From positions 1-42,344 of the IMG/VR virus record IMGVR_UViG_3300022917_000018: a stretch of DNA of 42,344 nt. The stretch is one strand, 5' to 3'. Within the stretch, counting starts at the first letter, position 1. Every line of letters begins with the position of its first letter. The stretch is from a virus. Its lineage: Duplodnaviria; Caudoviricetes. Shown in pieces: positions 6,045 to 41,202 of this stretch. The position numbers and the translations under genes were made by a program. The notes under the pieces were generated by a model that made no database searches, was not told the DNA's origin, and was given only the letters and a program-made list of their open reading frames with translations.

Positions 6045-6695
6045 TCATATTTGCTCCTGGTTGAAGTCTTCATGTTTGATCTTTGTGATGATCCGGTCGC
6101 CCCTACGCGTGAATAGTTCCACGACAGGCTTGGCCACGAGGCCCTCCGCAATAAAGTCACCCCACTGAGATTTGAGACCAGCCTTTATCATATCAACACC
6201 CTCCAGCAGCTTGCCTGTGTGCACAATCGGTACAACATCCAGGCTGAACTTGCCGGCTATATCTTCGACGTCTTTGCGCTTAAGGTAGAGCTCGCCTATC
6301 TTAACGTCAAATAGCACAAACTCCTGGGAGCTAGAGTAGTTGCCCCCACCTTTCTGTATCTTTGCTCCGTAACCTTCTCCAAACAGGGTGGCCGGAACCT
6401 CCCCAAATACCTGTTCGAATACCTGTTCTACCCGTGTGCCCATAAACAATTCGTTTAGCTTCGTGACAAGATGGCTTGGGATCTGCGCATTCTCTGTACG
6501 TCCACCAAAATAAACCTTATGGCCGTCCCATATAATGCGAATATTGGTGCCGTCAACCTTCTCCGTGAATACCCATTCTATGTCCTTCAGTAATTCAAGC
6601 TCGGGTTCTCTATATACCCCCTCGATAAGACGGAAGGGCTTCTGCTCCTCGCGTTTATAAAGTCCAGGTATCTTGTGGTATAGTTCACTCATCAT
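6045..6695 (-). CDS. ATP-dependent RNA ligase, Rnl2-like nucleotidyltransferase domain
   Basis: Motif I TEKVDGTN, III LFGEGYG, IIIa FVLFDV, IV EGLVAK, V KIK. Confidence 0.85.
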   Translation of the reverse strand: MMSELYHKIPGLYKREEQKPFRLIEGVYREPELELLKDIEWVFTEKVDGTNIRIIWDGHKVYFGGRTENAQIPSHLVTKLNELFMGTRVEQVFEQVFGEVPATLFGEGYGAKIQKGGGNYSSSQEFVLFDVKIGELYLKRKDVEDIAGKFSLDVVPIVHTGKLLEGVDMIKAGLKSQWGDFIAEGLVAKPVVELFTRRGDRIITKIKHEDFNQEQI

Positions 6696-6979
6696 CTTCT
6701 CCTAGCCCTAATCCTATCCACGACAGCCTTAAGCTTAGCGCGGCCTTTTAGGGCGGTATTGGTTAATATTGTGTCCATTTCAGTATCATGTTCTACGGTA
6801 CGTCTGTTTCTGTTGGGCGTAGCTATTGGTTCAAACTTAATGTGAGCTATATTAGATACGAAGTTGGCTTGCTCTTTATTCTCAGGTTCTACTTCGCAAT
6901 CTAATATTTGCTTAATCTGAATAGCTTTGTCGTAGTCTACGTCCTTTTTGGTACCGTTGGTGAGTATGAGGGTTGGCAT
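6692..6979 (-). CDS. Hypothetical phage protein
   Basis: 95-aa ORF. Confidence 0.7.
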   Translation of the reverse strand: MPTLILTNGTKKDVDYDKAIQIKQILDCEVEPENKEQANFVSNIAHIKFEPIATPNRNRRTVEHDTEMDTILTNTALKGRAKLKAVVDRIRARRR

Positions 6980-9350: not shown

Positions 9351-9638
9351 TTAAAAAGGTATGTCGTTCATATCAATGGGATCGTCAGTAACTTCTGAGA
9401 TCACATCAGGCTTAGCCTCTTCTGGTTTCTGGTATTCCTCGTGAGGATAGGCATTTACCCATTTGCCCTCAGTTGTTGCCGTAGGATTCAGGTAGATTGT
9501 TACCCTACTCAGATGAGGAGAGTGGTACAGTCTACCTACCGTAACGTAACGGGTCTTTTCTTTACCGTCTTTCGCGGTATACTTACCATCTGGTATTTTC
9601 AGCTCGCCGTAATATACAAGTGGCTTCTTATCGTTCAT
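9351..9638 (-). CDS. Single-stranded DNA-binding protein (SSB-like)
   Basis: Acidic tail ending DIPF; position after recombinase/exonuclease. Confidence 0.7.
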   Translation of the reverse strand: MNDKKPLVYYGELKIPDGKYTAKDGKEKTRYVTVGRLYHSPHLSRVTIYLNPTATTEGKWVNAYPHEEYQKPEEAKPDVISEVTDDPIDMNDIPF

Positions 9639-10324
9639 GATTCCTCCGTGAGTTCAGCTATTAACTTATTAACCTCGATTAGGGTCTCGACTTGCATCTG
9701 TCGCTGCGCCTCGATCTCTTCTAGGATGTCGCTACGTTTGATGACGATCACATGATGCATATACTTGTCGAGGGCTATACGGTCGTCGTAGAGAGTGAAG
9801 TAGAGAGTCTCTAAGTTCTCATTAACAACGAACCCGTCGATTGCCTGTTCCCTATATGATGACTTAGCGTCATTAGGCACTGAATCGATTGGGTTATAGT
9901 CATCTTGTTTTCGGGCGCGCATGTCTTTGATGACATATTTAAGGTGGTTCGCCGAACTCAAGCACTTGGCTTCAGCTACCCATGTAGGCCGATCCGACTT
10001 CTCACAGCCATCTGGTGAGAAGATGATGTCTTCGTTTTCGTCGCTCACCCATACACCTGGGTCAAGATCCATATCTAAGCCATACTTTTCAGCGGTCTTA
10101 GTTAGCGCCTCATCCTCAAGGCGATGGCCTCTATCCATATCTGGCTCGCCGTCGGAAGCGATAGCTATCTTCTCTGCTAACAGCTGCCAAAAGCCCATGG
10201 GTGTTCTGTCCTTGCCCCGTGCGAGGGGCTTCACGATCTTGACTTTCGTGCCAGATATTCGGCCGCGTCGGAAGTCAAGCCATGCTTCTCTATCCTTAGA
10301 CTGGCTTAGGCGTATTATCCGCAT
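9635..10324 (-). CDS. YqaJ-like (lambda-exonuclease family) 5'-3' exonuclease
   Basis: WLDFRRGRISGT, RGHRLE, SPDG, EAKC motifs. Confidence 0.85.
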   Translation of the reverse strand: MRIIRLSQSKDREAWLDFRRGRISGTKVKIVKPLARGKDRTPMGFWQLLAEKIAIASDGEPDMDRGHRLEDEALTKTAEKYGLDMDLDPGVWVSDENEDIIFSPDGCEKSDRPTWVAEAKCLSSANHLKYVIKDMRARKQDDYNPIDSVPNDAKSSYREQAIDGFVVNENLETLYFTLYDDRIALDKYMHHVIVIKRSDILEEIEAQRQMQVETLIEVNKLIAELTEES

Positions 10325-10850
10325 TGAGCTGCTCCTTTAACGCTTTCCTTTTATTTTCTAACTCGTCTTCGCCAATAATATTTACCTCGAAGAAATCTTC
10401 CTGAGAGTAAACATCTGCGAATAGCCCTAGTTCGCTTGCGCATTTCTTCTTGGCATCGGTGGCAGCCGCTTTCACGTCGTTACCAAAGTCAAGTGGCTCT
10501 TGCGTGCCTTTCTTGAAGGCGACTTCCTTGCGGCCATACTGTTCCTTGACAATCCATTGCTCGCCAATGAGCACCTTTAGAGTACCCTTGAGCACGACTG
10601 TCTTAGTCTTTGTAGCCACTTCTAGAGCCTCGGTCATGCTGGTGTCTATGGTGAATGACCAATTAAACCCAAACAAACTGTTCAGCACCTGAGTGACATA
10701 GCCACCTGATACATACTTCCACTGACCGCCACCCTTGGCTGGTCGGAGTTTAACCTTGTCCTCAGGAGTTGTGCTGAAGAACTTCTGTACCTGATCTGTG
10801 GTGAGGTCCGTCTGAACTTTCAGTATCTGGGACGTAGTAGCTGATGCCAT
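10296..10850 (-). CDS. Rad52/Sak-like single-strand annealing recombinase
   Basis: KLRPAKGGG..KYV...VLNSLFGFNWS...KAAATDAKKKCASELG. Confidence 0.8.
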   Translation of the reverse strand: MASATTSQILKVQTDLTTDQVQKFFSTTPEDKVKLRPAKGGGQWKYVSGGYVTQVLNSLFGFNWSFTIDTSMTEALEVATKTKTVVLKGTLKVLIGEQWIVKEQYGRKEVAFKKGTQEPLDFGNDVKAAATDAKKKCASELGLFADVYSQEDFFEVNIIGEDELENKRKALKEQLNADNTPKPV

Positions 10851-11077
10851 TATTCCTGTCTCCCTTCATCGTGCGAGCGCAAAAGCTCCAGACGTTCGTT
10901 AGTATTAAGATGTTCATTGCTACAATCGGGACACCACATATCCTGCAACTCAGCGTCGTAAACAATGCTGTCATGTTGGCAACGGATAGCGAGGTGTAGA
11001 CCTTCTTCGAAGTCGCCTTCGCTCCAGTCATCATCTAGCGCATATGTGGTGGGATGCTCTATTACGTTAATCTTCAT
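10850..11077 (-). CDS. Hypothetical protein with C.H...CPDC motif (start revised to MKINVIE)
   Basis: GGAG RBS before ATG 11077; upstream extension is a hairpin. Confidence 0.65.
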   Translation of the reverse strand: MKINVIEHPTTYALDDDWSEGDFEEGLHLAIRCQHDSIVYDAELQDMWCPDCSNEHLNTNERLELLRSHDEGRQE

Positions 11078-11377: not shown

Positions 11378-11397
11378 CTCCATTTAGGGGTTAGTTA
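11378..11397 (-). repeat. Cassette boundary box B, copy 2
   Basis: Identical to 5357-5376. Confidence 0.9.
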
Positions 11398-11570
11398 GTA
11401 AACTTCAGCACGTTGATAAGGTCACCTGACTCGTTCTGGACATTTACGATGACGTGCTTCTTACCCTTGCGGGCTTGAGACTTAGCATAGTGAATCGCTT
11501 TGCCGCGCTCGTGCTCGAACTCTTCTATATCATCATTCTCGCAGGCGACGCTGTAGTAGTACCGTGCCAT
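11391..11570 (-). CDS. 59-aa hypothetical protein, not in ORF track
   Basis: MARYYYSVACENDD...; GGAGG RBS. Confidence 0.75.
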   Translation of the reverse strand: MARYYYSVACENDDIEEFEHERGKAIHYAKSQARKGKKHVIVNVQNESGDLINVLKFTN

Positions 11571-11591
11571 ATCATCCTCCAGGGTTAGTTA
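11563..11591 (-). repeat. Cassette boundary box A, copy 2
   Basis: Identical to 5623-5651. Confidence 0.95.
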
Positions 11592-11717
11592 CTTTTTCTT
11601 ACGTGCTATACAAGGCTCGCCACATTCTTCGCAGAAGTACTTAACCTGTTGGTCTTCCTCGATTCTCACGGGAGCACCGCAACAGTGGCTTTCGTATTTC
11701 GGGTAGGGCCTCTTCAT
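11589..11717 (-). CDS. 42-aa zinc-finger protein, not in ORF track
   Basis: SHCCGA...YFCEECGEPC; GGAGG RBS. Confidence 0.7.
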   Translation of the reverse strand: MKRPYPKYESHCCGAPVRIEEDQQVKYFCEECGEPCIARKKK

Positions 11718-11747
11718 ATATGTGCCTCCAGGGTTAGTTGGTTATAT

Positions 11748-12038
11748 TTAGTTAGCTCTGGCCTTCAAGAGTTCGACGACCATCTCTACGGCTTTATCAC
11801 TAAAGATGATCATGTGACCTGCTTCTCTGCCAGCCGGATAATCGACTTGTGAGTCAGCAGAAATTTCATTCAAGAATTCTTCGGCTTCTTTGTATAACTC
11901 TTCCTTGGATACGTATCCATCGAGGGCAATATCATACCCCTCCCAGTTATCTACACCGGCCGATTCAAGTCGTTGCATTATTGCTTTTGCGTTCTGTAAT
12001 TCCAGGTATTCTTGTTTTGATATAGTCACATTACTCAT
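11748..12038 (-). CDS. Conserved phage protein (LESAGVDNWEGY motif)
   Basis: Motif widespread in phage hypotheticals; GAGGAGG RBS. Confidence 0.8.
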   Translation of the reverse strand: MSNVTISKQEYLELQNAKAIMQRLESAGVDNWEGYDIALDGYVSKEELYKEAEEFLNEISADSQVDYPAGREAGHMIIFSDKAVEMVVELLKARAN

Positions 12039-12060
12039 ACCGGCCTCCTCTTAATTAAAG

Positions 12061-12294
12061 TTACTTATACCAGTTATCATGTTTAAGGGTTACTACCTTA
12101 AAGGCGTATTGATGAACGCAATAGCCCAAAAACCTATGTTTCTCCGGTGCCAGGTGTCCAGTTCTATACTCCACCTCGCTATCTGGGGACTTACCGGTAA
12201 TGTAGAAGTACTTACCTTTAATCCAGGCGCGCGGAGCACCGTCATCTGTTTTCCTGCTGAGCCATACGGAACTAATAGTTAGAACTCGGTTGAT
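12061..12294 (-). CDS. 77-codon ORF with apparent ATC start (or mutated ATG)
   Basis: GAGGAGG RBS 6 nt before ATC; open frame to TAA at 12061; in-frame stop just upstream of the RBS. Confidence 0.5.
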   Translation of the reverse strand: MNRVLTISSVWLSRKTDDGAPRAWIKGKYFYITGKSPDSEVEYRTGHLAPEKHRFLGYCVHQYAFKVVTLKHDNWYK

Positions 12295-12328
12295 GTTACT
12301 CCTCCTCGCTTAAGTTACTTATACTTGC

Positions 12329-12446
12329 TTGAAGACAAATGGCTGCCGCTGCTAACTTACTTCCGTTTACTCCGACTTTCCCGCTTCGGTGAGTCATCGG
12401 CCTAGGGGGCATGTAAGTTGCCGAAGCTGCGGCCAGCTGTCTTCAA
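12329..12446 (-). ncRNA. Structured RNA module 4
   Basis: Closing stem TTGAAGACA/TGTCTTCAA; inner TGGCCGC/GCAGCCA-like and AACTTAC/GTAAGTT stems. Confidence 0.55.
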
Positions 12447-12490
12447 ACTTATCTATTACTACCAGCTGAACCGTCTCTAACGGTGTGTAT

Positions 12491-12610
12491 GGGTAAGAGC
12501 GTATGGTGCTAGTAGCAACTCCTATGAATTGATGGCATTGCCAATGCGTACACTCTTCTCATAAGAACGACTACGCAGACGGTTTACTACCAGCTTCATA
12601 CGCTCTACCC
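12491..12610 (-). ncRNA. Structured RNA module 3 (GTAGAGCGTAT closing stem)
   Basis: GGGTAGAGCGTATG/CATACGCTCTTACCC; second stem has G-U pairs only on the minus strand. Confidence 0.65.
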
Positions 12611-12619
12611 TCCGCTACC

Positions 12620-12829
12620 CTAAAAAACAAGAGTAGCGATAACATTGTCTACGTGTAGATTGAGACCCCAGCCTATAAGGGCTGCAATTGCTAGCAATCC
12701 AACACGATGCTTCTTAGCTACAAACCATAGAATTCGTGTCGTGGACATCTCCGAGATAACCCTGATGCCTGATTTAGTTGGTTTGCTTACTACTTCTGAA
12801 TCTATATATTCTTTGTTGTGTACTAACAT
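12620..12829 (-). CDS. Small membrane protein, first gene of early operon
   Basis: GAAAGGA RBS; hydrophobic VGLLAIAALIGWGL. Confidence 0.7.
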   Translation of the reverse strand: MLVHNKEYIDSEVVSKPTKSGIRVISEMSTTRILWFVAKKHRVGLLAIAALIGWGLNLHVDNVIATLVF

Positions 12830-12877
12830 AGTTAGTCCTTTCTATTTTGTTGTTTGTGTCTGGCGTAGAGCACCCAT

Positions 12878-13013
12878 AGGGAGAGGCAGGGATTTGGACA
12901 GCGTCACCCTGCATGATTTAAGCTCATCCTCCTTGGTGCGCTTTACCTGGATTCTCTCTCGAACAGACTTAAATCTTTCGAGCTTAAGCGTCTACCTATT
13001 CCGCCACTCTCCC
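12878..13013 (-). ncRNA. tRNA-Leu-like scaffold RNA with replaced anticodon arm (module 2)
   Basis: Acceptor GGGAGAG/CTCTCCC, Leu-type D arm TGGCGGAATAGGTAGACGC, T-stem GCAGGG/CCCTGC with enlarged loop, TTAAGCTC/GAGCTTAA enclosing ~50 nt. Confidence 0.75.
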
Positions 13014-13028
13014 TAAAGGGGCTCTACT

Positions 13029-13116
13029 GTAGAGCGTATAGCACTGACACTGAAGCTTACCAATCCGGCCGGCCGCAGCGTTGTCGTAACCTTAGTGCCA
13101 GAGATATACGCTCTAC
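13029..13116 (-). ncRNA. Structured RNA module 1 (GTAGAGCGTATA closing stem)
   Basis: Perfect 12-bp stem 13029-13040/13105-13116 plus GCACT/AGTGC. Confidence 0.65.
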
Positions 13117-13124
13117 TATGTTCA

Positions 13125-13135
13125 AGTTGTAAAAG
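13125..13135 (-). promoter_or_regulatory. boxA-like motif CTTTTACAACT, copy 2
   Basis: 11-bp identity with 13477-13487; resembles rrn/nut boxA. Confidence 0.45.
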
Positions 13136-13296
13136 GGCGCACTTAACCAGAGCTAACCACCATACGTTAGACTTTATGTGCTAGTTTGACCTCAGTCATA
13201 AGTCTACGAAAGTTCTCTTCAGTTACTCTGCGCGCTGGCTCGTAATATGACGAGCAGTCGGGCTTGTTCACTTTGGAACAGGTTTCGTTATCCTGC

Positions 13297-13325
13297 CGAG
13301 GTCATAACCCTTTGTAGTGACCTCG
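13297..13325. repeat. 29-bp dyad site (11-7-11); 23/25 inverted match to 14980-15004
   Basis: CGAGGTCATAA CCCTTTG TAGTGACCTCG. Confidence 0.85.
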
Positions 13326-13333
13326 ATATTAAT

Positions 13334-13363
13334 AAAAAAACCTCTCGTCTTCTAACGAGAGGT
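13334..13363 (-). terminator. Intrinsic terminator downstream of tRNA fragment
   Basis: CCTCTCGT-TAGAAG-ACGAGAGG followed by T7. Confidence 0.85.
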
Positions 13364-13376
13364 GAAAGTTTACTGA

Positions 13377-13431
13377 TGGAGCCGACAGAGGGATTCGAAC
13401 CCACGACCCGCTGTTTACAAAACAGCCGCTC
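13377..13431 (-). other. attP-like 3' portion of tRNA-Thr(UGU)
   Basis: Anticodon arm GCTGT-TTTGTAA-ACAGC, GGTTCGAATCC T-loop, TGTCGGC-T-CCA; no matching 5' acceptor/D stem at the right distance; ~130 bp from integrase stop. Confidence 0.8.
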
Positions 13432-13476
13432 CGTAAACTGACATTGTCTCTGTTAGGAGATGAATATGTTCAGCTT

Positions 13477-13487
13477 AGTTGTAAAAG
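13477..13487 (-). promoter_or_regulatory. boxA-like motif CTTTTACAACT, copy 1
   Basis: ~30 nt downstream of the predicted early TSS; identical to 13125-13135. Confidence 0.45.
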
Positions 13488-13521
13488 ATTCGGCCTCGTC
13501 TGTGCTCGGCTTACTGTCTTA

Positions 13522-13550
13522 ATACTAGCATAACTGTTATGTGATGTCAA
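13522..13550 (-). promoter_or_regulatory. Strong sigma70-type early promoter with palindromic operator-like spacer
   Basis: TTGACA-17-TAGTAT with TG extension; ATAACAGTTAT palindrome in the spacer. Confidence 0.8.
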
Positions 13551-13565
13551 TAGACAAACGATAAG

Positions 13566-14432
13566 CTAGATAGTAGTATAGCTCACTTTGTTCATGGTGT
13601 CATCAAAACTCTTATGCACACGCGTGTTTCTAAAGTGAAGGTAGATCATAGTGGTGTGGATCTTCTCATGCCCAAGTATCTGCTGGGCTTCTTCAATACG
13701 CCCATCGGCCTCTAAATAGGTAGTAGCGCCCGTATGCCGGAGTGTATGCGGTGTTACCTTCTTCTTAATGCCAGCCTTTTCTGCATAGAACTTCACTTTA
13801 CGAGCAACGATAACTCTACTTAATGAATTGCCATCCGGATTCGGGAATAGTGGGCCTGGATCGTTACCCCTTCTCAGCTTAATATAGAGGTCTAGGGCAG
13901 CTTGTGCTTCTTCTGTTATGAATACGGGTCTAGGCTTGCCACCCTTGCCCTTGCGGATGAGTACAGAGCGTTTGTGAACGTCATCGTATTGTATGTTTAT
14001 AAATTCAGTAACACGTACCCAGCTAGTTAGTAAGAAGAGCATCATGGCCTTATCACGGATGTCATCTATGACGGATATAAACTTCTGCGCCTCCTCCATT
14101 TCTAAGAAGTTAGCTTCTTTGTTCCACTCTTCTTTGGGTACTTCTACCTTTTCAGGTTTAATATCTGCTAAGTCCTTTATATATAGGTAGCGTACAAAGC
14201 TGCGTACTGCATTAAGCTTGCAACGGTATGTCTTGGAAGCGTAGTTACGGAGGCTTAGCACATCCGCAAAGTAGTCAACATCATCAATATGCAGCTCAGA
14301 GACAGGCTTGTTGCCTGTTATGTCAGCGAACTGCGCCAATATACCTCTATAGGTATCTATTGTCGTCAGTGACCTGTTTTTGCGCATACGTAAATAGCGC
14401 AGAAAAGCATCAACTGCCTCTGTAGTATTCAT
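13566..14432 (-). CDS. int: Tyrosine integrase/recombinase, XerC/D size, no arm-binding domain
   Basis: Catalytic R (VRVTE), K (KGKGGK), HTLRH, LGH, Y (TTMIY); adjacent tRNA fragment. Confidence 0.92.
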   Translation of the reverse strand: MNTTEAVDAFLRYLRMRKNRSLTTIDTYRGILAQFADITGNKPVSELHIDDVDYFADVLSLRNYASKTYRCKLNAVRSFVRYLYIKDLADIKPEKVEVPKEEWNKEANFLEMEEAQKFISVIDDIRDKAMMLFLLTSWVRVTEFINIQYDDVHKRSVLIRKGKGGKPRPVFITEEAQAALDLYIKLRRGNDPGPLFPNPDGNSLSRVIVARKVKFYAEKAGIKKKVTPHTLRHTGATTYLEADGRIEEAQQILGHEKIHTTMIYLHFRNTRVHKSFDDTMNKVSYTTI

Positions 14433-14447
14433 TTGGTTTAGACTCCG
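14433..14447 (-). promoter_or_regulatory. Integrase RBS box CGGAGTCTAAACCAA
   Basis: Directly precedes ATG; exact inverted copy at 15062-15076. Confidence 0.85.
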
Positions 14448-14595: not shown

Positions 14596-14735
14596 TTGTT
14601 CGCTGCCTGTGTACTCTACAATCTTGCTTGTTTTACTAACCTAGTTATTCCTGTTTTCAGAGCATAGATCTAGGCTGGTAGTGTGTTAATAGGAAACAAA
14701 CAAAATTGTAAAAGTACAAAGGCAACAGCGAGCAA
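14596..14735. other. ~140-nt rod-like imperfect hairpin
   Basis: TTGTTCGCTG/CAGCGAGCAA, TGTACT/AGTACA, TACAAT/ATTGTA, TTGTTT/AAACAA in register. Confidence 0.7.
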
Positions 14736-14904
14736 TGCCATCTATTGGTTTAACCTGTTGATGGCGTAAGGTTACGTACCCTCACGTAATTGCTCACTTC
14801 CCTTATTCCCGTCCTCATCACATGAGTCTGAGTGTGGCGTACCGGCATTAACGCACCCGGTACTTTAAAGTGTCGCGAAATCCGCACATTATGCTTGACA
14901 AATG

Positions 14905-15006
14905 AAAAAACCTCGTTCGGAATTTCTCCAAAACGAGGCATTTTTCGTGGTTTTGTCACTACAATAATGCCTCGGATACCGAGGTCACTACAGCGGGTTA
15001 TGACTA
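14905..15006 (-). ncRNA. Candidate sRNA-A (~100 nt)
   Basis: Promoter TTGTAA-17-(TG)TACACT at ~15012-15040; terminator CCTCGTT...AACGAGG-T6 at 14905-14938; no credible ORF. Confidence 0.55.
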
Positions 15007-15044
15007 GCAACTAGTGTATCAGATAGTGGTCTAGATTACAAGTT

Positions 15045-15152
15045 AGGACACTCCCCTAGAACGGAGTCTAAACCAATCAGCAAAGCTCGCGCCTTGTTTT
15101 CGGGAAGTGCCCCTTCCTCAGCGCGATGAGATTACAGAGATTGGTTTAGACT
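15045..15152 (-). ncRNA. Candidate sRNA-B
   Basis: TGcTAGGAT extended -10 just upstream; 14-bp closing stem AGTCTAAACCAATC/GATTGGTTTAGACT; inner CGCGC/GCGCG stem. Confidence 0.55.
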
Positions 15153-15315: not shown

Positions 15316-15387
15316 ATAGCTCTCCTAATTGGTTTAGACAATCCGCATTGTAGCAGGTAGCTAATCCTAAGATCATTAAATGGCATA

Positions 15388-40566: not shown

Positions 40567-40665
40567 GTTGCCTGCATGACATGATCGTAATTAGGCACTA
40601 AGAATACTACTCCGTACTTAGTGGGGTCTTTGGTGTAATCAGTTTGCATGTGCTCCCTTTAGGGA

Positions 40666-40865
40666 TAGAAGAATCTAGGTAAGGCGTGCCAGCTAATGTT
40701 TGAGTGTATATGTGTAGACAACTTGCTCTATTTATGGCACGCCGCCTAATTGTAGTTGGTAACAGCTTCGTTGGAAGTCGTGTTACAAGAACTAGGACGG
40801 ACGATTGCTCGTACGCCTCACTTAGATTCTGCTACCTACCACTTTTAGTTGGGTACAGTATAGCA
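40666..40865 (-). promoter_or_regulatory. TGcTATACT promoter plus ~170-nt structured leader of the packaging operon
   Basis: Closing stem 40670-40687/40813-40830; competing GGCGTGCCA/TGGCACGCC stem. Confidence 0.55.
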
Positions 40866-40901
40866 TAGACTCTATTAAATTGATAGTTGATGGGTATATA
40901 G

Positions 40902-41051
40902 AAAAAGCCCGCTACTTATGTAACGAGCCTTGTCCAAAAGTTAATGATTAGTGTGTAATGTGCAGCTCCCCGAAGTCTTACACACGGAGGGGAGTTCGCT
41001 TAACATAACAGTTATCTACTACAAATATAATAATCAATTACATTTGGGAGT
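40902..41051 (-). ncRNA. Candidate sRNA-C (~150 nt)
   Basis: TGgTATAAT at 41058-41066; terminator GCTCGTTAC/GTAGCGGGC-T5; no ORF. Confidence 0.5.
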
Positions 41052-41101
41052 GCCTACATTATACCACATCTGAGGCATGTCGATAACGTTTGTGGCTAAC
41101 T

Positions 41102-41184
41102 AAAAGACCAGCATCATCGTTCGGTCGAAACCTTAGGACTAGCTGGTCATGGTTCTCTACGAGTCTAGACAGGTAGAGTGCTGC
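41102..41184 (-). ncRNA. Candidate sRNA-D (~85 nt)
   Basis: TGaTATAAT at 41191-41199; CTCTAC/GTAGAG hairpin; GACCAGC/GCTGGTC-T4. Confidence 0.45.
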
Positions 41185-41202
41185 ATAGGTATTATATCAC
41201 GC

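Follow-up and report, generated by a model that had tools for sequence, protein, structure and literature searches.

The window analysed here, the whole stretch of 42,344 nucleotides (nt) that makes up positions 1 to 42,344 of IMG/VR record IMGVR_UViG_3300022917_000018, comes from leaf-litter metagenomes and represents 42.3 kb of a tailed temperate phage (Caudoviricetes), in a record that CheckV rates as linear and 54% complete. Every identified gene lies on the minus strand: terminase, major head protein, an endolysin-like peptidase and a tyrosine integrase, then early genes that include a gp5.9-like RecBCD inhibitor, a Rad52/Sak-like annealase, a YqaJ-like exonuclease and an RNA ligase. Ahead of these early genes, with all of its features on the same strand, stands an array of four predicted RNA modules, each an inverted-repeat stalk that encloses an interior (cargo):

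13029-13116, minus strand: module 1 (M1), a stalk with a cargo of about 55 nt
12865-13027, minus strand: module 2 (M2), a predicted scaffold derived from leucine transfer RNA (tRNA-Leu) inside an outer stalk
12620-12829, minus strand: open reading frame (ORF) of 69 codons with a ribosome-binding site (RBS), between M2 and M3; no family match
12491-12610, minus strand: module 3 (M3), a 24-base-pair (bp) stalk of a conserved family, with internal loop, and a 65-nt cargo
12456-12467, minus strand: orphan 12-nt copy of the M3 5' arm
12329-12446, minus strand: module 4 (M4), with a stalk of a second family, TTGAAGACA

An earlier note on this DNA had described the region as constant stalks around variable cargos, organised like an rrn operon and processed into discrete small RNAs at the very start of infection. 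Its observations on the letters are reproduced at the same positions: M1, M2 and M3 start with GTAGAGC and finish with GCTCT(T)AC, M1 and M3 have GTAGAGCGTAT in common, the stalk of M4 is distinct, and the boxA-like CTTTTACAACT occurs twice (13487-13477 and 13135-13125), the second copy being separated from M1 by the 8 nt TGAACATA, also common to the first copy; a third variant is present at 14714-14704. Three GTAGAGC..GCTCT(T)AC elements stand within 1.2 kb, as against at least one in 5 of 2000 first-order Markov resamplings. Fold z-scores are -4.99 for M1, -4.44 for M2, -5.45 for M3 and -4.12 for M4 (0 of 200 shuffles as good), compared with -0.07 and -1.01 for control stretches next to the array (n=2), and folding gives the stalks of M1, M2 and M4 some 17-25 pairs. 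Pieces of M2, M3 and M4 recur with 0 differences in contigs from two other studies. Because the 69-codon ORF with its RBS separates M2 from M3, the array is not made purely of RNA. Rfam 15 gave no family at gathering threshold in the window and none over the modules at E<=10; over 20+12+20+20+14 related loci, some of them counted more than once, the sole family at or near threshold was tRNA, in elements adjacent to the modules. The array is not of the CRISPR kind: its units are inverted-repeat stalks, with no CRISPR-repeat match in Rfam and no Cas among the ORFs scanned. A hammerhead reading of M4 was rejected, the core being absent as judged by eye against the hammerhead consensus.

The stalk of M3 has the widest record in relatives. 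A pattern built from its 5' arm gave 29 viral matches, of which 17 were aligned with M3 and 11 fit the pattern by chance within coding sequence; L428, which duplicates L408, and L429, near-identical to L409, were left out of the alignment, and LoVEphage (L514), with its different 3' arm, is excluded from the counts. A first stalk pattern had been discarded, both inspected matches of its four (L002, L005) being chance matches in coding DNA. Besides the window, 17 phage contigs have M3-type stalks, and the cargos that these enclose (53-147 nt) are unrelated: the arms are 85-89% alike, while the cargos reach 41% against 36% when shuffled (n=18), BLAST among the 18 cargos gives no match, and no motif is common to them. 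In the 24-pair stalk 97% of cells are paired, with 27 double-sided, compensatory changes, a number reached in 0 of 500 shuffles (n=18; a control that ignores the relatedness of the contigs), and slid controls are 20-48% paired. Two near-invariant G-U pairs (15/18 members each) would read as A-C on the other strand; such conserved pairs work on one strand only and favour one RNA strand, and the sense-strand fold is the better one in 16 of 18 members.

The pattern extends to other stalk types. For M4, the closing arm was present in 9 of 120 pattern matches, the only real homolog being L607 in provirus G442, whose interior has diverged and which stands third after a boxA-like head. M1 has no homolog beyond the part common with the M3 arm, and the best match of its cargo, 15 nt to the L238 cargo (E 0.63), is not significant. 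In oral-type relatives an outer stem surrounds the array, and TCAA/CTGG junctions link its modules; these arrays are complete in 24 of 25 loci and have 2-5 modules each, and three of their stalk types hold 5-6 cargo clusters apiece. Relatives selected for the antisense pair described below have one or two long stalks after the phage attachment site (attP) in 13/13 cases against 0/13 shuffles, although the match in L042 may lie in an ORF. Several cargos contain pieces of tRNA (L202, L220, L233). As judged from these alignments, the predicted stalks of the array are conserved and covary, and the cargos are unrelated between phages; the earlier note had named conservation of stalk sequence in relatives as one of its checks, and the design that it proposed, stalks kept and cargos exchanged, is what the relatives have.

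Within the outer stalk of M2, the following parts can be laid out as a tRNA-like fold:

13013-13007/12885-12879, minus strand: acceptor-like stem
13004-12988, minus strand: D arm
minus strand: insert of 75 nt, replacing the anticodon arm
12912-12907/12891-12886, minus strand: T stem of 6 bp, with an 8-nt insert in the T loop

The D arm is identical to that of the host tRNA-Leu(UAA). A search for an exact 21-mer found about 300 stretches of viral DNA, and 120 of these were examined together with L014 and the window (122 in all). The order acceptor-like stem, D arm, insert, 6-bp T stem and TG[insert]CAAAT was parsed in 98/122, the rest being 7 ordinary tRNAs and 17 unparsed matches, of which several are evidently variants or lie on cut contigs; once the spurious 248-nt parse of L216 is dropped, 97/122 remain, representing 76 distinct scaffolds. 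Acceptor-like pairing holds in 75-76 of the 76 through position 7 and then in 66/76 and 52/76, by a parser that required acceptor pairs 1 to 5 as well as the T stem, with the D arm as search key. Host tRNA matches parse in 0/36 cases, and 7-bp acceptor pairing is found in 34 of about 1500 swapped pairs against 95/96 real ones. A 28-row alignment holds 122 double-sided changes (0/500 shuffles), with three rows misaligned in the outer helix. The insert that takes the place of the anticodon arm is 28-190 nt long and unrelated between members, and a helix closes it in 38/86 scaffolds against 25 when shuffled. The T loop begins with TG in 94/98 parsed scaffolds, its insert opens with AC in 40/41, and an encoded CCA follows a 7+1 arrangement in 2/98 and an 8+1 arrangement in 19/98, with none in the window. 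On this covariation across the family, M2 is a tRNA-Leu-derived scaffold whose anticodon arm has been replaced.

The scaffold is also recognised by eye in three named phages, where none of the copies is annotated as RNA and where the parser skipped them because their closing pair differs:

L512 893-999 (SPP1 about 6645-6751): scaffold between genes 9 and 11 of SPP1
L513 896-1025: scaffold after yonN in phi3T
L515 about 693-830: scaffold in Listeria phage B054

A further element, which has a T-arm-like hairpin, directly follows the scaffold in SPP1. Among 401 host genomes, a tally that includes the unpublished G344 and G248, the D-arm pattern (<=1 mismatch) is present in 129, and the 30 loci inspected are normal tRNA-Leu genes in 29 cases (one of them, L449, from G344) and a scaffold heading a stalked array in one. 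Forty ORFs downstream of scaffolds revealed no conserved neighbour, being a mix of terminase, HNH, endolysin and unknowns; one scaffold (L218 810-2294) lies directly upstream of a 495-aa gene of PHROG 850, 'RNA-binding protein', which is not among the other 39 neighbours. ARAGORN found no transfer-messenger RNA (tmRNA), and neither ARAGORN nor RF00005 matched M2; the tmRNA model RF00023 likewise has no match over M2, its weak one at 13374-13497 (15.4 of 47 bits) being the attP tRNA half. Neighbours of scaffold RNA include ordinary-looking tRNA bodies in which inserts of about 31-32 nt replace the anticodon loop, or whole tRNAs clamped by stalks (L220 2136-2744, L233 2561-2657, L253 153-247, L202 2722-2804).

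Three boxA-like sites accompany the array:

13477-13490, minus strand: boxA-like site 1, weak (5.4 bits)
13125-13138, minus strand: boxA-like site 2, which heads the array (8.2 bits, a score reached in 1.2% of control windows)
14704-14717, minus strand: third site, with the same TTTTACAA variant, the best in the genome against the host rrn boxA profile (15.4 bits)

In rrn leaders of the host class, boxA opens the 16S processing stalk in 16/28 cases by regular expression, with trailer pairing displayed for 12. Scored with the host rrn profile, the boxA at the head of phage arrays lies above the 95th control percentile in 9/17 M3-type and 10/16 oral loci, and the TTTACAA variant of site 2 in the window also heads arrays in L170 and L501. 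Host-class genomes encode RNase III in 40/41 cases and NusB in 41/41, and RNase P RNA was found in 5/5. The rrn analogy drawn in the earlier note is thereby strengthened: host boxA is fused to a processing stalk, many array heads are boxA-like, and the hosts have NusB and RNase III. Passages of PMC1540722 give RNase III substrates as typically two helical turns, in which internal loops can limit cleavage to one bond, a description that the predicted M3 stalk with its internal loop fits. In G001 (C2 113558-114937) and most host-class genomes scanned, rnc follows nusB on the same strand at a distance of about 1 kb. The 16S flanks of the host class (L406-L407 and L467-L495) have boxA itself as the 5' arm of the processing stalk, and many of the 16S genes are followed by a terminator-like hairpin, not by 23S.

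Upstream of the array lies a set of predicted control elements:

15013-15041, minus strand: promoter-like TTGTAA-17-TACACT of a predicted antisense small RNA (sRNA); absent from the consensus scan list
14903-15006, minus strand: predicted antisense sRNA
13522-13550, minus strand: promoter TTGACA-17-TAGTAT with extended -10, upstream of attP
13375-13431, minus strand: attP core, the 3' part of tRNA-Thr(UGU)
13332-13363, minus strand: intrinsic terminator
13298-13329, minus strand: hairpin targeted by the predicted sRNA

The attP tRNA-Thr half and the terminator thus sit between the promoter with the first boxA and the array. Just behind this terminator, the hairpin at 13329-13301 forms a 29-nt inverted repeat (90%) with the sRNA at 15004-14976, and the predicted duplex of sRNA and target has -47 kcal/mol. 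The same pairing, in other sequences, is present in 15/29 integrase-linked relatives (L006, L023, L024, L026, L028, L033-L039, L042, L046 and L047), in which the predicted sRNA is about 45-100 nt long, lies upstream of the integrase and has its own promoter and terminator. The upstream arm is read as an antisense sRNA because a sigma70-type promoter directly precedes it (12/13 relatives) and it runs into a terminator-like hairpin in most relatives examined. An alternative reading of the 29-nt repeat as the ends of an invertible segment was rejected: the mismatches are central, the upstream arm stands right behind a promoter, and no strand-change joint occurs in the contigs compared, which show presence only. 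The conserved pair of sRNA and target is a candidate repressor-free immunity switch of Saccharibacteria-type phages; no CI-like helix-turn-helix repressor was found among the 55 ORFs scanned of a record that may be incomplete. P4 CI RNA and P1/P7 c4 RNA are immunity RNAs directed against the leader of the lytic operon, and we infer an RNA-based immunity akin to them with another downstream step: Rho stood above the cut-off in 0/5 host-class genomes (themselves incomplete), so that this step would have to differ from that of CI and c4. The same arrangement makes the timing proposed earlier doubtful. In a temperate phage whose array stands behind attP, a terminator and an antisense target, and is interrupted by a protein gene, expression at the very start of infection does not follow; of the earlier interpretation, the stalk and cargo architecture and the rrn analogy are supported, and release of discrete small RNAs is a prediction.

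The remaining genes that bear on these readings are as follows:

13566-14432, minus strand: tyrosine integrase (PHROG 1, E 6.5e-47)
11748-12038, minus strand: early gene downstream of the array, with a T7 gp5.9-like RecBCD inhibitor domain
9635-10850, minus strand: Rad52/Sak-like annealase and YqaJ-like exonuclease
6045-6695: RNA ligase (PF09414)

The phage likely infects Saccharibacteria, an assignment made because its attP matches Saccharibacteria tRNA-Thr. It differs by 0-2 mismatches over <=57 nt from tRNAs of Saccharibacteria metagenome-assembled genomes (L370, L373, L385, L288, L366, L371, L382), and in a tRNA pattern search with 120 genome loci the 10 best matches to attP have 0-2 mismatches, 7 of the 10 being labelled Saccharibacteria; tRNA-Thr(UGU) is moreover the insertion site of the related prophages L009 and L016. 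As single queries the window's integrase and exonuclease found no close relative, and one metagenome scan gave generic integrases only. The same tRNA-Thr(UGU) is used in L015 (10882-10925), L006 (about 10965-11015; attP reverse-oriented) and L016 (10961-11037), where attP holds the 5' half in place of the 3' half held in the window; in L016 the promoter on the integrase side points at a host tRNA-Thr/Tyr pair. Upstream of the window's integrase, a 12-nt word, TTGGTTTAGACT, occurs in four copies and both orientations (14433-14447, 15062-15078, 15139-15152, 15329-15340), one at the integrase start codon, as possible operator or integrase arm sites. Small early ORFs are preceded by repeated linkers bearing an RBS (11388-11408, 11570-11594, 11719-11743, 12045-12099, 12299-12324), which may be boundaries of protein-gene cassettes parallel to the RNA cassettes. 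At 40570-41200, ahead of small genes that precede the terminase, about 600 nt lack a minus-strand ORF of 50 codons and contain two promoter-like -10 boxes and several hairpins, possibly a late control region or a further non-coding RNA.

We favour, with somewhat better than even confidence, the view that the early operon is headed by an array of exchangeable RNA cassettes, which host RNase III, and RNase P in the case of the tRNA-like one, likely process into small, stable RNAs with a probable role as decoys. In the circular phage, the promoter at 13550 would load an rrn-type antitermination complex at boxA, which would read through attP and the terminator and reload at the second boxA; integration would separate that promoter from the array, and any remaining read-through would be caught at the 13329-13298 hairpin by the antisense sRNA. 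RNase III would then cut each stalk, leaving a helix-clamped cargo with both ends protected, and the D/T elbow of the tRNA-like cassette would draw RNase P. The constant arms may recombine through the adjacent Sak/YqaJ pair, swapping cargos, with the Sak-like annealase and YqaJ-like exonuclease as candidate machinery for the exchange. The weakest step is the last, in which an arms race would drive the turnover of cargos that are decoys for host RNA-binding proteins of defence or control; given release, we put such a role at somewhat less than an even chance. The full combination, an accessory cassette system made only of RNA in which rrn-mimicking handles and a tRNA scaffold release fast-evolving decoy RNAs under an antisense-RNA switch, is more doubtful still.

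Several observations weigh against the favoured cassette-array view. The window's own boxA copies deviate from the host profile, ranking 12 and 30 among 42,330 minus-strand positions, and the host stalk core TAGTG(C/A), itself only modestly enriched (15/28 leaders against 6 controls), is missing from M3. M4 folds better on the opposite strand. M2 taken alone prefers another fold, its tRNA-like fold lying 6.5 kcal/mol above the minimum free energy with pair probabilities near 0 in the D and T arms, so that the tRNA-like structure rests on family covariation; the T-stem, D-arm and first five acceptor columns are in turn not independent evidence, because parser and search required them. The oral stalk type CTGGCAACA has a single cargo, and the oral arrays are close kin that lie downstream of the exonuclease, not at attP, and lack the antisense pair.

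Among other explanations, the one with the best claim, which we consider unlikely, gives the stalks a role in cis only: they would be T7-like processing or stability signals of early messenger RNA (mRNA), or would hide insertions from the ribosome, and the cargos would be neutral debris, partly decayed tRNA genes. The arrays do directly precede early genes, the one in the window includes an ORF, tRNA pieces lie in several cargos (L202, L220, L233), the cargos have no common motif, and the helix-closed share of scaffold inserts is as low as 38/86; yet tandem stalks joined by linkers of 1-10 nt, with no gene between, are not needed to process one mRNA, and the scaffold keeps covarying acceptor-like and T stems, as well as the AC start of the T-loop insert, across phages of distant hosts. 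Quite improbably, the released cargos could be guide sRNAs that pair with host or phage mRNAs, a CRISPR-like constant and variable design without Cas. Some oral and gut cargos are U-rich, with CAT or CTCC words complementary to start regions, and the same phages use an antisense pair. The search of cargo loops for complementarity to host or phage RNAs that the earlier note had suggested nevertheless found nothing above chance: in the four window cargos no stretch beyond 10-11 nt is complementary to the sense strand of the phage itself, a length equal to that in shuffles; one oral array against five host-group genomes gave a best E of 0.04, a weak test in which the true hosts are not represented; and six inspected host matches lie inside ORFs or are AT-rich.

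The modules might also be DNA elements, either small mobile ones (of the type of miniature inverted-repeat transposable elements or repetitive extragenic palindromes) or attC-like sites for the adjacent integrase. Terminal inverted repeats, variable interiors, a neighbouring tyrosine recombinase, and certain stalks that start with GTTAGAG and finish with YYAAC would suit this. We regard it as very improbable, in that the GTT/AAC core is unconserved and in reverse order by comparison with the core order of attC, the outer bases covary, conserved G-U pairs point to a single RNA strand, several kb separate the oral arrays from the integrase, and no inverted joint appears in the contigs compared (again a matter of presence only). 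Excision and circularisation of the modules by the phage RNA ligase at 6045-6695 hardly deserves credence: the window does encode this PF09414 protein, but a relative of it was found in 0/33 array-bearing records, 20 of them >=90% complete, by a single-protein query without positive control.

If the RNA-only system exists, it would parallel, in non-coding form, the gene islands of anti-defence; it would be widespread among phages of Saccharibacteria and would have gone unnoticed in SPP1 and phi3T. The findings point to accessory functions that phages carry as RNA, a layer that escapes gene callers as well as ARAGORN and Rfam. Because the handles can be searched for, hundreds of candidate effector RNAs could be harvested at once, and the presence of the scaffold in SPP1 and phi3T makes processing and function testable in Bacillus subtilis. 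The prophages of Saccharibacteria are hardly studied, and the antisense switch would offer a first model of how they may maintain lysogeny when no repressor is recognisable. For RNA expression, a natural tRNA scaffold that takes cargo at two sites could be of use.

Each part of the array has a relation among known systems. The leader of rrn operons likewise has boxA directly before a long stalk, its hosts carry nusB and rnc side by side, and the head of the oral arrays, GAACATTAACAATT, scores inside the range of host rrn boxA sites; the phage cargos, in contrast, are 30-250 nt long, non-ribosomal and exchanged between phages, several stalks stand in tandem, and the phage system is known here from sequence. 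T7 early mRNA carries RNase III sites in the form of short-loop hairpins that separate protein genes; long stalks with an internal loop on an early phage transcript are common to both systems (passages of PMC1540722 treat a substrate derived from T7 R1.1), whereas here the stalk encloses a non-coding cargo. The immunity RNAs of P4 (CI) and P1/P7 (c4) resemble the predicted sRNA in being small, in having their own promoter and terminator and in their complementarity to a lytic-operon leader, but the present pair has one continuous arm of 21-34 nt and no c4 match in Rfam.

M2 shares with tRNA-Leu(UAA) (RF00005) the D arm, identical to that of the host, and a 7-bp acceptor-like stem. It differs from tRNA in lacking an anticodon arm (5 bp and a 7-nt loop), whose position the cargo occupies, and in its 6-bp T stem, TGCAAAT loop, optional second insert and usual lack of an encoded CCA, where tRNA has a 5-bp T stem and a TTC loop. 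Allo-tRNAs of the 8/4 or 9/3 type combine an anticodon arm with a 12-bp branch in which the T stem is short, as opposed to the 7/6 branch without anticodon arm of the scaffold; engineered tRNA scaffolds reportedly carry their cargo where the anticodon arm would be. The YrlA group of Y RNAs, according to passages of PMC4201824, has a tRNA-mimicking D/T elbow, occurs in phages and includes one RNase P substrate. M2 departs from it in its unpermuted order (that of YrlA being permuted, with a closed acceptor stem-loop and a Ro60 gene nearby) and has no Rfam match, and a Y RNA reading was rejected on this arm order and on the finding of Ro60/TROVE in 0/5 records searched. GOLLD, ROOL and other phage RNA motifs, including skipping-rope (in passages of PMC5737381), are likewise structured phage RNAs, unannotated and near tRNA-like elements; those are conserved inside, whereas the array modules are conserved at the handle only. 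For decoys, RNA anti-CRISPRs and pseudo-ToxI provide precedent. In the literature searched no described array or scaffold was found: six supplements of PMC10690425 gave no motif match, while its files 1, 2 and 4, outside that search, may list the scaffold anonymously, and the word tRNA is absent from PMC6316719, on SPP1. As far as sequence comparison goes, the array of exchangeable non-coding cassettes thus appears to fit no described family that we found, and its parts resemble the rrn leader, tRNA and antisense immunity.

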